Origin: an uncultured Candidatus Saccharibacteria bacterium
Lineage (GTDB): Bacteria; Patescibacteriota; Minisyncoccia; Phycocordibacterales; Phycocordibacteraceae
Assembly (NCBI GenBank): GCA_964402535.1
Contig: CAYOCH010000001.1
Coordinates: 72,286 to 136,285 of the forward strand
DNA length: 64,000 nucleotides
Direction: 5' to 3'
This document shows, in pieces, positions 40,933 through 55,286 of this stretch. The notes under the pieces were generated by a model that searched no databases, was not told the origin of the DNA, and saw only the letters and a program-made list of their open reading frames with translations. Made by a program: the position numbers and the translations under genes. Every line of letters starts with the position of its first letter. The stretch's first letter is position 1.

Positions 40933-41296
40933 GTATAGTGCGCTCGGACCGAGCTAGACGACCGCTCCGTGAGCGATCACGGGGAGGAAAGTCCGAACAT
41001 GCTCCCGCGCGCAAGCGAGGGAAACCGGGTAGCGGGTAACGCCCGTCGTCCGCGAGGATAGAGGTGCCTACAGTGACGTCGAAGGCGAAAGCCGGAGACT
41101 CCCCTGCCTGCCGGTAGGCAGGCTTCGGGGAGAATCCTGCCGAGAGGCAGGGGTGCAACGAGCAAATCCTTACCTGCATGCAAGGCCGTATCGCCAGTGC
41201 TTCGCACTGGCGGGGTGCCGCTTGAGCCCGCCGGCGACGCCGGGCCCAGATAAATGGTCGTCCACGACAGAATTCGGCTTATCGGCTCGGTCCGCA
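40933..41296 (+). ncRNA. rnpB: RNase P RNA (bacterial type A)
   Basis: P4 strands GGAGGAAAGTCCGAAC and ACAGAATTCGGCTTATCGG covary with consensus (GG becomes AA paired with CC becoming TT); GGGTAACGCC region; P1 CGGACCGAGC/GCTCGGTCCG; TATAGT -10 just upstream. Confidence 0.75.
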
Positions 41297-41302
41297 TACA
41301 TG

Positions 41303-44736: not shown

Positions 44737-45384
44737 ATGCAACCGGTAGAAGCACCCGCGCGGCACACCATCACGGTGCCGCTGCATCCAAACGTCATGA
44801 TCGACATCTTCCGTAGTACGGAACTGTCGATTGCGAAGAGCGGAGAGCTGGACAACCAAGGCGTCGATTTGTCATCCGACGGCGTCCGCCAAGCGCAGCA
44901 GTTGAGCGTCGTGTTGCATGCGTACGGCATTCACTACGACTTGGCTGTCTATGCGGCGACGCCGCGCGCACGCCGGATGGCGCATGCCGTACTCGGCAAC
45001 CATCGTGGTGCGTGGTACCGCGGCCAAGGCCGCGATCTCTACGCGCCGCGTGACGACCGGCACTACAACGCGCTGCTTGCGCTCGACCGCGAGATCAAGT
45101 CGCGCCGCTTCGGGAAGTTCACACCCGTCGTGAGCGCTGATGTTCTCGATCGGGCGGAGCCGCTCTTCGAGGCGTTCCTGCGCGATACCCGCCAGGTCTT
45201 CGCGTCGATTAAGAAGATCGAGGAGATGCGTCGTATCGCCATCTTTGCTGATACGCTGATGACGGGCGAAGCGCTGCTCCCCCACTTGGCGGAGTCGCTG
45301 CGCGAGATAGATCGCGGATTCGCGCATGGCGAATGGGTGCAGCTCTCGCACAACGGCTGCATCTACCACAAGCGCCCGATGTAG
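44737..45384 (+). CDS. hypothetical protein (possible degenerate histidine-phosphatase fold)
   Basis: 215 aa; weak resemblance only. Confidence 0.35.
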   Translation: MQPVEAPARHTITVPLHPNVMIDIFRSTELSIAKSGELDNQGVDLSSDGVRQAQQLSVVLHAYGIHYDLAVYAATPRARRMAHAVLGNHRGAWYRGQGRDLYAPRDDRHYNALLALDREIKSRRFGKFTPVVSADVLDRAEPLFEAFLRDTRQVFASIKKIEEMRRIAIFADTLMTGEALLPHLAESLREIDRGFAHGEWVQLSHNGCIYHKRPM

Positions 45385-45414
45385 CCTGTTACACCACCAA
45401 GCCAGTCAGCATTC

Positions 45415-45448
45415 AGCCGGAGGTTCACCCCTCCGGCGTTTCTTTTTA
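45415..45448 (+). terminator. intrinsic terminator
   Basis: gccggagg-ttcacc-cctccggc stem followed by gtttcttttta. Confidence 0.6.
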
Positions 45449-45455
45449 TATATTG

Positions 45456-45545
45456 TGGCGGAGAGGGCGAGATTCGAACTCGCGGTGGGGTTTCCCCCAC
45501 GCATGCTTTCCAAGCATGTCCTTTAGACCACTCAGGCACCTCTCC
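45456..45545 (-). tRNA. tRNA-Ser (anticodon GGA), CCA encoded
   Basis: GGAGAGG acceptor, long variable arm, anticodon stem CATGC/GCATG with loop TTGGAAA. Confidence 0.8.
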
Positions 45546-46197
45546 ATTTCTCGTAGACCGAACGTATGCGTTCATTCGAGGTGCCGAATACCCGTAAGTA
45601 CTTGGCGACCGCATCCTCTCGATAGAGATAGATATTGCGACCTCGGGTATCAATATGCGGCAAAATGCCGAATTGTTCAAATACCGCTGCGACCTGCCGG
45701 AGCATCCCTGGTGAATAACTTGTAAAACAGAGACCGATGTTTTTATAAATCTTTCCCGCTATCTTGTGCGAATGAACGAACAGGCACCCGTCGGTATCAA
45801 TGAGGCCACGGACACATGCCCGCCGATACGAAGACTTCTTGAGGATCCAGTCTGGTATGCAAAGCCCATGCTGCAATTTATTGCCGCGAGGAAGCCCTTT
45901 CTCTACGAGGAAATCTACCAGAGTTGTACTCGCAGCTGATATGACTAACGCATCGCGACCTTTGCGCTTTCGAATAGCCGGTCTGATGTGGAACAAATCA
46001 AATATGAGCGCCTCTACGTAATGCGCATATCGCGCATCGGTGATTGAATTCATCGTGATATTAGCTTGCCATGGGTTATTGATGCCTCCATCACCAAGCA
46101 TGACTCCGAAGAATTCCGCAAGACGCGCAGAAGGCCCCGGAATTCGTATCTCCTTCCGATGACTCCTTTTTGGATATCTAAGCCTGCGAACTCTCAC
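45532..46197 (-). CDS. LAGLIDADG homing endonuclease (two-motif, single-chain)
   Basis: LAEFFGVMLGDGGI and CVRGLIDTDGCLF LAGLIDADG motifs; ~50% GC vs ~65% flanks; 3' end overlaps tRNA-Ser by ~14 nt. Confidence 0.7.
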   Translation of the reverse strand: MRVRRLRYPKRSHRKEIRIPGPSARLAEFFGVMLGDGGINNPWQANITMNSITDARYAHYVEALIFDLFHIRPAIRKRKGRDALVISAASTTLVDFLVEKGLPRGNKLQHGLCIPDWILKKSSYRRACVRGLIDTDGCLFVHSHKIAGKIYKNIGLCFTSYSPGMLRQVAAVFEQFGILPHIDTRGRNIYLYREDAVAKYLRVFGTSNERIRSVYEKWRGA

Positions 46198-46307
46198 TTG
46201 CTAAGTATAGCATTTGGTCTAGTGCCGGAAATTTTACCCGCACTGGTCACAACCCGCACAAAAGAAAGGCACGGGGCTTAACCCCGTGCTCGTGAAATGA
46301 CGATCGC

Positions 46308-46520
46308 CTATATCGCTGTGCCGACTGCCACCTTGATGCCGAAGTCTTCAAGCCATTTTTCGCCGCGCACAACCGCAGTCGCATCTGCGAATGACAGACC
46401 GTGGTCATGGGTCAGTTCGTCGCGGATCAGCAGTTGCTCCATTGTGAACCCCTCGATACGCGCCTGGATGGCTCCGGAATGCTCGAGCGTTTTGCTCATT
46501 TCGTTCTCATCTTTAAACAT
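46308..46520 (-). CDS. hypothetical 70-aa protein
   Basis: ORF followed on its strand by hairpin ggcacggggcttaaccccgtgcc plus T-tract (46262-46291). Confidence 0.35.
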   Translation of the reverse strand: MFKDENEMSKTLEHSGAIQARIEGFTMEQLLIRDELTHDHGLSFADATAVVRGEKWLEDFGIKVAVGTAI

Positions 46521-46570
46521 TGGAATCTACCCGGAGGCATCCTAACCTCAACGCATGCACGGGTCAAACA

Positions 46571-47482
46571 CTACTTGGCCTGCTTATTCAACAGCGCGTT
46601 GATCCGGTCGGGGATGGGCGGATGGGTCGAGAAGAGCTTCTCGATCCAGTTGCCGCTGCCCTTCCCCTCCGAGCCGAACGGGTCGCCGATAAAGAGGTGC
46701 GCGGTCGCGAGGTTCGCGCGCTGCATCGGCGCGCCGTAGCCGCCGATCTTCGCAAGCGCGGAGGCGAGCCCCTCCGGGTAACGCGTGAGGAGGGCGCCCG
46801 AGGCGTCGGCCAGATACTCGCGCCGGCGCGAGACCGCAAGCTGGATGAGCTTAGCGGCCAAGGGCGCGAGGATGATGCCGACCACAGCGAGCACGATGAC
46901 GACAGCATTGCCGCCCTCGCGGTCGTCGCGCCGACCGCCGCCCCAGAGCGACACGCGCAAGAAGATGTCCGCCACGATCGCCGCGAAACCGGCGAGCACG
47001 ACCGCGACCGTCATGAGGAGGATATCGCGATTCTTGATGTGCGAGAGCTCGTGCGCGACGACGCCCTCGAGCTCGACGCGCGAGAGCATCGAGAGGAGCC
47101 CCGTCGTCGCGCAGACGACCGCGTGCGCCTCGTCGCGCCCCGTCGCGAACGCGTTCGGCGCAGGATCGTCGATCACGTAGAGCTTGGGCTTGGGGAGCCC
47201 GGCGATGATCGCGAGATTCTCGGTCACGGTGTAGAAGTCGAAGAACTCCTCGCGCGAGGCCGGCCGCGCGCGATTCAACGAGAGCACCAGCGTATCAGAC
47301 GCCCAGTAGGCGTAGAAGTTCGTGGCGAGCGCGATCGCGAGCGCGATATAGGTTATCGCCGGGTTGCCGTAATAGTAGGCAACGGCATAGCCGACTGCGG
47401 CTACTACGACGACGAAGCCGAGCACGAGCGCCCAGGTCTTGCGGATGTTGCTTGAGCGTTGTTCGTACAAATTCATAGGCAC
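46571..47482 (-). CDS. htpX: M48 zinc metalloprotease HtpX
   Basis: HELSHIKNRD (HExxH) in TM context. Confidence 0.85.
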   Translation of the reverse strand: MPMNLYEQRSSNIRKTWALVLGFVVVVAAVGYAVAYYYGNPAITYIALAIALATNFYAYWASDTLVLSLNRARPASREEFFDFYTVTENLAIIAGLPKPKLYVIDDPAPNAFATGRDEAHAVVCATTGLLSMLSRVELEGVVAHELSHIKNRDILLMTVAVVLAGFAAIVADIFLRVSLWGGGRRDDREGGNAVVIVLAVVGIILAPLAAKLIQLAVSRRREYLADASGALLTRYPEGLASALAKIGGYGAPMQRANLATAHLFIGDPFGSEGKGSGNWIEKLFSTHPPIPDRINALLNKQAK

Positions 47483-50716: not shown

Positions 50717-50719
50717 GTG

Positions 50720-50792
50720 TGCGCCCACCACGACTCGAACGTGGAACCGCCGAGGTATAAGCTCGGTGCTCTAACCATTGAGCTATGGGCGC
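50720..50792 (-). tRNA. tRNA-Ile (anticodon TAT)
   Basis: GCGCCCA/TGGGCGC acceptor, anticodon stem CCGAG/CTCGG with loop CTTATAC. Confidence 0.65.
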
Positions 50793-54765: not shown

Positions 54766-55168
54766 GGGGGTGACCGGCTTTGACGGTCTGTCCTTTGAAA
54801 GACGTGCGACGCAGTGCCCGCTCGACGACACTTTAATCCGACGAGCAACCAAACTTGCCAAGAACACTCTTGCAAGCGTGAAGTCCCCGTACTTCGGTGC
54901 AAAGGACTTCGCGTTCGCGTACGCGGTCGCCTAACGGCCACTCGCCTGCGCGACATCTCGCTCTCCGGGCTCCCGCAGCCGCGGGCTGAGGTGGAATGGT
55001 CTGCAGGATCTATGTCCGGCCTCCCGCCCGGCGCATCTAGATCAGGGATCGGAGCGGAACGGTTTCGTCTTGATTTCCACGCCCGCTCTTAAATCCAATC
55101 AAGCCTACGCGTCGTAGAAACGCTTTCAAAGCCAGATTCGGACTCGAGTTCGACTCTCGACACCTCCA
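54766..55168 (+). ncRNA. ssrA: tmRNA (SsrA)
   Basis: 5' GGGGGTGACCGGCTTTGACGG, 3' T-arm TCGAGTTCGACTCTCGA plus acceptor CACCTCC-A; putative tag reading frame ...AKDFAFAYAVA-TAA; immediately downstream of smpB. Confidence 0.85.
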
Positions 55169-55286
55169 CTCGATATGCGCGGCCGCCCAGAGGGCGGCCG
55201 CGCGTTTGACTATGGCCCGGACATTCCGTATCGTACGAGCCGAACCTAGCCATTCCGGCAGAGGTACTAGTTCTTTAGGAGGAGCA

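Follow-up and report, generated by a model that had tools for sequence, protein, structure and literature searches.

Homing endonucleases usually enter essential RNA genes inside a self-splicing intron or an intein. The window analysed here, a 64-kb stretch (64,000 nucleotides) of contig CAYOCH010000001.1 from an uncultured Candidatus Saccharibacteria bacterium, raises the question of how a homing endonuclease gene (HEG) came to lie against a tRNA gene with neither. In this window a free-standing HEG of the LAGLIDADG type directly abuts an intact tRNA-Ser(GGA) gene, as an earlier note on the DNA had proposed and as Pfam, ARAGORN, Rfam and the modelled protein fold bear out. On the comparative sequence evidence described below, it is probable that this gene is an active HEG and constitutes an intron-less element that splits tRNA-Ser(GGA) and rebuilds the gene with a 5′ part of its own.

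An endonuclease gene tied to tRNA-Ser(GGA)

The open reading frame (ORF) encodes 221 amino acids (aa), begins with GTG and lies 5′ of tRNA-Ser(GGA) on the same strand. The overlap between the two genes, previously put at about 14 nucleotides (nt), is exactly 14 nt: the ORF ends in ...AAA TGG AGA GGT GCC TGA, of which GGAGAGGTGCCTGA is also nt 1–14 of the tRNA, and the TGA stop codon falls within the tRNA D-loop. The GC content is 0.47–0.51 over the ORF, close to the 50% given earlier, versus 0.59–0.72 in both flanks. The tRNA is complete, with an encoded CCA, a canonical 'class A' D-arm, and fully paired acceptor and anticodon stems.

Both motifs that had been read from the translation are present, MLGDGGI at residues 33–39 and LIDTDGCLF at residues 132–140. 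The C-terminal domain (residues 124–203) matches the Pfam family LAGLIDADG_3 with 35.4 bits against a cut-off of 22.5, and the N-terminal half stays below the cut-offs of LAGLIDADG_2 (20.8 vs. 25) and of the WhiA LAGLIDADG domain (19.6 vs. 23.2); several homologues carry both PF03161 and PF14528. In an alignment of 41 members with a mean column identity of 71%, the catalytic aspartates D36 (GDGG) and D136 (DTDG) are invariant in all 41, which settles the state of the acidic residues that the earlier note had wanted verified. An AlphaFold2 model built with 41 homologues has a pLDDT (predicted local distance difference test) of 90.9 and the secondary structure expected for a pseudo-dimeric alpha-beta-beta-alpha-beta-beta-alpha fold. 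The top Foldseek matches are all LAGLIDADG enzymes, the best being I-Tsp061I (PDB 2dch; E 2.9e-12, TM 0.71/0.76), and further matches include intein endonuclease domains, I-AniI, I-DmoI, the I-OnuI family, and also WhiA. By motif, profile, catalytic residues and fold, the window protein is thus a member of the LAGLIDADG superfamily. It shares with I-Tsp061I and I-DmoI (PDB 2dch and 2vs7) the monomeric two-domain fold, the size and two LAGLIDADG helices with the catalytic acid, but differs from these archaeal rRNA-intron enzymes in sequence (about 17% identity) and in target. At the level of structure, the search for intron-encoded relatives that had been suggested leads to I-Tsp061I.

The ORF is not a chance one, since it has 414 homologues at E ≤ 1e-3 in a 90%-clustered database (best non-self match 2.9e-109). 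Nearly all of these are 220–230 aa long and 60–78% identical, and those with names belong to Patescibacteria. A profile search of 1.84 billion cluster representatives returned 3285 clusters at E ≤ 1e-3, of which 421 reach E ≤ 1e-30. Many of these are about 330–350 aa long and extended at the N-terminus by about 120 aa; in P0126, the one member tested, the extension showed weak helix-turn-helix matches. The family is therefore large and conserved in Patescibacteria (the Candidate Phyla Radiation, CPR) rather than an isolated oddity, and has apparently not been described so far. The ratio of nonsynonymous to synonymous substitution (dN/dS) between members is 0.07–0.18, with synonymous sites near saturation, and therefore indicates strong, long-term purifying selection on the protein.

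A metagenome scan with the family alignment yielded 80 loci, 76 of which have at least 90 nt of sequence past the ORF. tRNA-Ser(GGA) stands immediately 3′ of the HEG on the same strand in 74 of these 76, and the ORF overlaps the tRNA in 69, by 23 nt (39 loci), 14 nt (14 loci), 15 nt (6 loci) or other lengths (10 loci); a small positive gap takes the place of the overlap in the remaining 5. In most members, the window's included, the conserved C-terminal Trp codon consists of a T followed by G1 and G2 of the tRNA, and the last residues and stop codon of the HEG are encoded by the tRNA D-loop. The order LemA, HtpX, HEG, tRNA-Ser(GGA) recurs on three long contigs with family members. At locus L073 the tRNA lies 3 kb away from HtpX and the HEG still adjoins the tRNA; the HEG is tied to the tRNA rather than to the locus.

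The peptidase gene HtpX, the conserved upstream neighbor of tRNA-Ser(GGA), provided a HEG-independent anchor for sites lacking the element, in place of a tRNA-pattern scan of genome collections that was judged too unspecific. With this anchor, 80 GTDB species representatives were retrieved, and the nearest HtpX relatives of the window are metagenome-assembled genomes labelled Paceibacterota, Kaiserbacteria or Parcubacteria, which assigns the window to a Patescibacteria (CPR) host. The HtpX locus contains tRNA-Ser(GGA) in 45 of the 80 species, downstream of HtpX on the same strand in 43 of them. The HEG is present in only four of the 45 (L006, L013, L016 and L073), so that related genomes without it, which the earlier note had suggested looking for, make up 41 of the 45 tRNA-bearing loci. 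A six-frame profile search found no HEG remnants elsewhere. Among the closest relatives, L006 (HtpX 84% identical to that of the window) is filled, and L007 (82%), L008 and L011 (80% each), and L009 and L010 (77% each) are empty. In the empty loci L008 and L011, a promoter (tgcTATAAa) and then the tRNA follow within about 35 nt after HtpX. Presence and absence thus alternate at one homologous site, as they do for a mobile HEG. To reveal strain-level polymorphism in the species of the window itself, HtpX was looked up by exact match, with no hit, and P0001 led only to a 1.2-kb contig with the same arrangement.

Relics, differing tRNA 5′ parts and the candidate target

Alignment of the 60–100 nt upstream of the HEG start across loci revealed a fixed order: native tRNA promoter, GGAGGCGTCGCATAGYGGTCTAGTGCA, about 12 nt, GCACTAGACC, TGnTATAAT, 6–8 nt, ATG. 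The GGAGGCGTCGCATAGYGGTCTAGTGCA block equals the first 26–27 nt of a 'class B' tRNA-Ser(GGA) allele that is intact in HEG-less relatives, and comprises the acceptor 5′ strand and the whole D-arm. The 26-nt relic GGAGGCGTCGCATAGYGGTCTAGTGC (up to 6 edits) is kept in 13 of 76 non-redundant loci at −63 to −69 from the HEG start, 12 of them at −66 to −69, and shows 0 mismatches in L118 and L121; about 20 further loci keep its D-arm part alone. All relics end at the same nucleotide, nt 26/27, at the junction of D-arm and anticodon stem, and some are still preceded by the native tRNA promoter. Downstream sequence is available for 11 relic loci, and in none of them does a relic of the tRNA 3′ part occur within about 300 nt past the functional tRNA. 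At L095 (780–900), the tRNA-Ser next to the HEG breaks off after its first 25 nt (GGAGAGATGCGAGAGTGATTTAATC); unrelated sequence comes next, and ARAGORN found no tRNA in the remaining 529 nt. The locus is possibly a truncated copy, or an ectopic one, and would then mark the right end of the element.

The relics, the missing 3′ relic and L095 together point to insertion into the tRNA-Ser(GGA) gene at nt 26/27 by an element that brings nt 1–27 with it. In the window, such an element would span about 0.72 kb, from approximately 46239 to 45519 on the minus strand, with the HEG as its only gene, and would coincide with the low-GC island. The first 14 nt of the putative replacement also encode the last residues and stop codon of the HEG. 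A possible decayed relic in the window (GCGGGTTGTGACCAGTGC, aligned by eye and weakly with GGAGGGTTCGCATAGTGGTCTAGTGC of intact relics) lies at the expected distance from the GCACTAGACC box and outside the regular-expression threshold of the relic search. An element carrying the whole tRNA was rejected as a general rule, given the absence of a 3′ relic in 11 of 11 loci and the presence of the 5′ part only in L095; whole-gene co-conversion still seems frequent.

This architecture also bears on the two origins that the earlier note had offered, a decayed intron or intein context and a HEG targeting the tRNA gene region. The second has stood up, through the linkage, the empty sites and the relics; the first has not, for want of a ribozyme or a Hint domain and because the gene has its own promoter. 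At gathering score, Rfam detected no intron family in the 64-kb window, in which group I and II introns and other structured RNAs were sought, and at E ≤ 1 the tRNA was its only match across positions 45300–46600. The tRNA is therefore uninterrupted and free of an intron, as had been stated, even if its 5′ part was probably supplied by the element. A group I or II intron around the ORF was rejected on the Rfam result and on the small amount of non-coding sequence available, and an intein context was rejected as the 221 aa contain no Hint domain, the VMA intein matches in the PDB cover the endonuclease domain only, and the ORF has its own promoter and start. It is very improbable that the gene is the remnant of an intron- or intein-encoded endonuclease whose ribozyme or Hint domains decayed and left the ORF stranded beside the tRNA. 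Such an origin would suit the closest structural relatives, which are intron- and intein-encoded (I-Tsp061I, the TliVMA intein, I-DmoI), and the abundance of LAGLIDADG-bearing insertions in CPR rRNA genes (PMC11270868), but only about 60 nt of non-coding sequence separate relic and ORF, the downstream tRNA has a complete 5′ part of its own so that nothing needs splicing, and the same compact architecture recurs in more than 70 loci.

The functional tRNAs at filled and empty sites differ in their 5′ parts. Most HEG-linked tRNAs have the canonical tRNA-Ser D-arm with TG at nt 8–9, as in GGAGAGGTGCCTGAGTGGTCTAAAGG, a type shared by the window's own tRNA-Ser(CGA), and the others have the variant D-arm GGATAGTGGTTTATTCC; HEG-less relatives mostly have GCATAGYGGTCTAGTGC. 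The HEG-less allele reads GGAGGCGTCGCATAGTGGTCTAGTGCACCGCCTTGGAAAGG, and the HEG-linked tRNA begins with GGAGAGGTGCCTGAGTGGTCTAAAGGACATGC. The exact D-arm motif GGTCTAGTGC is shared by 28 of the 45 functional tRNAs at HEG-less loci, and none of the 76 HEG-linked ones contains it. This makes GGTCTAGTGC in the D-arm the likely target motif and a tRNA-Ser(GGA) gene of the GGAGGCGTCGCATAGTGGTCTAGTGCACCGCCTTGGAA type the predicted cleavage substrate. When each HEG-linked tRNA was compared by segment with its nearest HEG-less neighbor by HtpX, identity was 69% in the 5′ part, 60% in the anticodon stem and 59% in the variable arm, versus 92%, 83% and 70% between HEG-less pairs. In L086, L088, L128, L118 and L001, the 3′ part of the tRNA matches that of the neighbor and the 5′ part differs. 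The tRNA of L093 is a hybrid, in which the 5′ strand GGAGAGG stands opposite CGCCTCC, the perfect partner of the class B strand GGAGGCG; that of L121 is half compensated, and every other tRNA is fully paired. Hybrid tRNAs and segment pattern are the trace that co-conversion tracts of variable length around a double-strand break would be expected to leave.

The same observations bear on the possibility that the enzyme cuts outside the tRNA body, in the leader, the promoter or at a distance, with the tRNA serving as a conserved safe landing pad and the relics and tRNA differences arising from co-conversion or unrelated recombination. Many loci without relics would fit this, as would the whole-tRNA differences of many HEG-linked loci if co-conversion tracts were long, and T4 SegG and related enzymes do cleave at a distance from their insertion point. 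LAGLIDADG enzymes, in contrast, normally cut at the insertion site; in 13 independent loci the relic breaks off at one and the same nucleotide between D-arm and anticodon stem, and GGTCTAGTGC is never found in a HEG-linked functional tRNA. Cleavage outside the tRNA is accordingly considered improbable.

Several loci show the HEG in decay. In L013 it is split over three frames by two frameshifts, for which assembly errors are possible; L152 and L155 share an identical break in two samples, and L153, L154 and L156 have an N-terminal stop. Together with the empty sites, these copies look like stages in a cycle of invasion, degeneration and loss. Four HEG-less loci, L010 (−29 from the tRNA), L033, L039 and L046 (−115), have a duplicated tRNA-Ser(GGA) 5′ fragment upstream of an intact gene, and in L046 the relic D-arm reads GGATAG...TTTATT versus GCATAG...CTAGTGC in the functional gene. 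These fragments may be scars of element loss or of HEG-independent or further replacement. A layered arrangement is seen in L109 (300–1180) and, from a second sample, L160, where a class B relic precedes a HEG with the canonical fragment GGAAGAGTGCCAGAGTGGTAG at its 3′ end; beyond it lie a fresh promoter (TGATATAAA) and a variant tRNA that is complete (GGATAGTGGTTTATTCC), a layering that suggests repeated rounds of 5′-part replacement.

A number of points weigh against an element that splits and rebuilds the tRNA gene. The identity of the HEG follows that of HtpX (r = 0.70), outliers being no more than moderate, and the pairwise HEG/HtpX comparison found no near-identical HEGs in distant hosts; strong purifying selection would equally fit a host function. 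The relic is complete in only 13 of 76 loci and at best vestigial in the window, the divergent subfamily L131–L165 has neither relic nor inverted box, and the right boundary of the element is inseparable from co-conversion in most loci, some HEG-linked tRNAs differing from their neighbors over the whole gene. The Fisher p of 5e-16 for GGTCTAGTGC is uncorrected for phylogeny and compares a HEG-linked set gathered via the HEG with a HEG-less set gathered via HtpX, and the target site is read from just two things, the relic boundaries and the motif exclusivity.

Some of these points would suit a domesticated LAGLIDADG protein. On this reading the host passes the gene on vertically, its product might regulate tRNA-Ser transcription by binding DNA or have some other role linked to tRNA-Ser, and co-expression, not mobility, would keep it adjacent. 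The low dN/dS near synonymous saturation, the correlation with HtpX with no sign of recent distant transfer, and a synteny conserved across Paceibacteria-like lineages are all as it would predict, and a LAGLIDADG fold can turn into a regulator, as seen in WhiA, one of the structural matches. Domestication is nonetheless considered unlikely: most close relatives have the locus but lack the HEG, pseudogenized copies and scars occur, both catalytic aspartates are invariant, unlike those of WhiA-type domesticated proteins, the relics show arrival by disruption of a tRNA gene, and HEG and GGTCTAGTGC are mutually exclusive. As to vehicles, an IMG/VR scan revealed no close HEG copy, the best being 39% identical. 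A phage vector was rejected, as there is no close IMG/VR relative; the one 39% match (L166) also flanks tRNA-Ser(GGA). Nor did the comparison with HtpX, with its co-divergence and modest outliers, give a sign of recent long-range horizontal transfer. The element seems to spread locally, from relative to relative, which is what repair by homologous recombination would need.

If the element does split and rebuild tRNA-Ser(GGA), its life cycle could run as follows. It would sit between canonical nt 26 and 27 of an allele with the D-arm GCATAGYGGTCTAGTGC, and its 3′ end would supply substitute nt 1–27 with a different D-arm, which would join the tRNA 3′ part into a complete gene without splicing. 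The displaced native 5′ part would stay upstream as a decaying relic, almost gone in the window. In HEG-less alleles, the enzyme would recognize a site of about 20 bp spanning the junction and cut there. A HEG-bearing allele would then be the repair template from which the element is copied in; the relic would provide homology on one side and the tRNA 3′ part on the other, and co-conversion would extend over varying lengths. Since the new D-arm would be devoid of the recognition motif, carriers would be immune.

Expression signals and the inverted D-arm box

A −10 box (at least 5 of 6 matches) ending 5–9 nt before the HEG start, most often 6 nt, is present in 52 of 75 loci and is preceded by TGn in 41 of them; shuffled controls gave 6 of 75. 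The window has the extended −10 promoter TGCTATACT. As this leaves no room for a Shine–Dalgarno sequence, the HEG mRNA, made from the element's own promoter, is predicted to be leaderless. The intrinsic terminator of an upstream 70-aa ORF ends just before this promoter and insulates it against upstream transcription.

No convincing tRNA promoter was found inside the HEG ORF of the window, and the tRNA is probably transcribed together with the HEG and cut free by RNase P. The RNase P cut would take the last codons and the stop codon off the HEG mRNA, so that full-length protein would come from unprocessed transcripts only, and this coupling could plausibly act as a brake on HEG expression. Genes for RNase P RNA and for tmRNA, the former relevant to the processing of the predicted HEG-tRNA transcript and the latter to the fate of a stop-less HEG mRNA, are both present in the window. 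In other loci (L098, L100, L101 and others), conserved C-terminal codons (S-V-Y-K-K-W, ...GTnTATAAAAAATGG) produce a TATAAA about 10 nt before tRNA nt 1, a distance similar to that of the native tRNA promoter at empty sites. The HEG coding sequence may double as tRNA promoter in these TATAAA-bearing loci. The C-terminal codons in the window (GTCTACGAGAAATGG) do not contain the hexamer.

Abutting the promoter is the box GCACTAGACC, in which the displaced allele's D-arm motif GGTCTAGTGC is repeated exactly in inverted orientation. It is the sole copy in the 64-kb window and occurs at −25 to −32 in 32 of 76 loci. Where a relic survives, the two can pair as a 10–16 bp hairpin, which was considered as a possible intrinsic terminator; no U-tract follows it, and its fold z-scores vary from −4.8 to −1.0. 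Where the relic has decayed, the window being an example, the box itself is preserved, which suggests a functional cis element. By analogy with the autorepression of I-TevI, it may be an autoregulatory operator or a target mimic.

Features of the HEG locus and other noted features in the 64-kb window
Feature	Positions	Strand	Remarks
tRNA-Ser(GGA)	45456..45545	(-)	ARAGORN; Rfam tRNA 58.6 bits
tRNA nt 1-27 (acceptor 5′ strand and D-arm), putative element-borne replacement	45519..45545	(-)	relic boundaries in 13 related loci; L095; no 3′ relic
LAGLIDADG HEG ORF	45532..46197	(-)	
Extended -10 promoter	46204..46212	(-)	ends 6 nt before GTG start
Inverted box	46216..46225	(-)	
Possible decayed relic of displaced tRNA 5′ part	46240..46257	(-)	
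Intrinsic terminator of 70-aa ORF	46269..46289	(-)	
70-aa orphan ORF	46308..46520	(-)	no Pfam match
HtpX (Peptidase_M48)	46571..47482	(-)	
RNase P RNA	40946..41297	(+)	class A, 118.8 bits
tRNA-Ile, anticodon TAT (UAU)	50719..50792	(-)	
tmRNA	54766..55171	(+)	86.3 bits

Relatives, known systems and neighboring genes

The association with tRNA-Ser extends beyond the GGA isoacceptor. All five informative distant relatives, a small sample, lie immediately 5′ of a tRNA-Ser gene: P0127 (345 aa) at Ser(TGA), with a 38-nt overlap and the same TGGTATAAT–6 nt–ATG start, P0129 (271 aa) at Ser(CGA), P0131 (346 aa) and P0134 (220 aa) at Ser(GCT), and a partial match with 39% identity to the query in L166 (420–1146, IMGVR_UViG_3300025715_000112) at Ser(GGA). 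The tRNAs in L179 and L180 are truncated at the ends of their contigs and were identified by eye. That five of five cases should adjoin tRNA genes for one amino acid by chance is very unlikely, and the superfamily as a whole appears to be specialized on tRNA-Ser genes. The L166 contig is classed as viral and could be either a phage-borne version or a misclassified CPR contig. In L179 (1054–2218), a tRNA-Ser(TGA) gene, a 69-aa ORF, a 271-aa HEG relative and the start of a tRNA-Ser(CGA) gene follow one another, one endonuclease gene thus being flanked by two tRNA-Ser isoacceptor genes.

From here a broader conjecture can be offered tentatively, as something possible that would more readily prove wrong than right. 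The CPR LAGLIDADG superfamily, with hundreds of 50%-identity clusters, might consist of natural 'cleave-and-rescue' drives on all tRNA-Ser isoacceptors, each cutting a susceptible allele and installing a resistant 5′ part. The rescue tRNA would be tied to HEG transcription, so that neither could be silenced alone; the target-mimic operator and RNase P would throttle the system, and the D-arm diversity of tRNA-Ser(GGA) would be the footprint of an arms race.

The closest analogue is found in fungal mitochondria, where mobile endonuclease ORFs form gene hybrids in Allomyces macrogynus atp6 and in Glomus atp6, atp9, cox2 and nad3 (PMC3630166). There too, a LAGLIDADG or GIY-YIG ORF enters an essential gene without an intron and brings a foreign copy of a segment, which fuses with the rest of the gene and leaves the native segment as an unexpressed relic. 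The mitochondrial hybrids are protein-coding genes in which the 3′ (C-terminal) part is replaced and the relic lies downstream, whereas here a tRNA gene on a bacterial chromosome has its 5′ part replaced, the relic lies upstream, the ORF overlaps the replacement, and the family is specialized on tRNA-Ser. In architecture alone, with a duplicate segment fused and a native relic left behind, the element is of the gene-hybrid kind; host, gene type and polarity differ.

T4 SegB is likewise a free-standing HEG among tRNA genes, required for the preferred inheritance of the tRNA region and its flanks in co-infection with a related phage (PMC2330249), but it is a GIY-YIG enzyme of a phage genome, lies between genes, and involves neither a disrupted tRNA relic nor replacement of a gene part. 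The CPR LAGLIDADG genes described so far are found in rRNA insertions, many of which are group I introns removed from the RNA, and the word 'tRNA' does not occur in the text of that paper (PMC11270868). Phylum, enzyme superfamily and the choice of conserved structural-RNA genes are the same; the window element differs in having no ribozyme and in using gene-part replacement. Literature searches on LAGLIDADG with Patescibacteria and on HEGs with tRNA-Ser, of incomplete coverage, found no description of this arrangement.

Two further systems offer partial parallels. Integrase-driven islands and prophages insert into tRNA genes and restore them with an element-borne duplicate of the tRNA end, but they use tyrosine integrases and att sites, usually at the 3′ end, measure tens of kb, and do not spread by double-strand-break repair. 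Synthetic cleave-and-rescue and home-and-rescue drives pair a nuclease against an essential gene with a rescue copy that resists cleavage; these are engineered in insects on the basis of Cas9, whereas the system here is natural and deduced from comparison.

If the element works as proposed, it would represent a different bacterial route into essential RNA genes, by way of a replacement gene fragment. This logic resembles that of home-and-rescue drives, and the literature found documents it only for protein-coding genes in fungal mitochondria. It would explain the divergent D-arms, duplicated 5′ fragments and mismatched stems of some CPR tRNA-Ser genes, and raises the possibility of a selfish element driving tRNA sequence evolution. 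The family would furthermore be a source of monomeric meganucleases, hundreds in number, each compact at about 220 aa and directed at a target of about 20 bp that can be predicted, and leaderless expression and RNase P coupling, as predicted, would be new modes of HEG regulation.

The neighbors of the HEG in the window are LemA, HtpX (Peptidase_M48), a DUF192 protein, a class II ribonucleotide reductase and RecG. The 70-aa orphan ORF, located between HtpX and the HEG, is closed by a terminator of its own. Among about 170 related loci no homologue was found, and the only contig to share the ORF is L175, a short one of the same organism; as no other locus has a homologue, it was rejected as a part of the element. 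The tRNA-Ile gene starts 3 nt past the RecG stop codon. Since AUA is decoded in most bacteria by a lysidine-modified CAU tRNA, a genomically encoded tRNA-Ile with a UAU anticodon is unusual.

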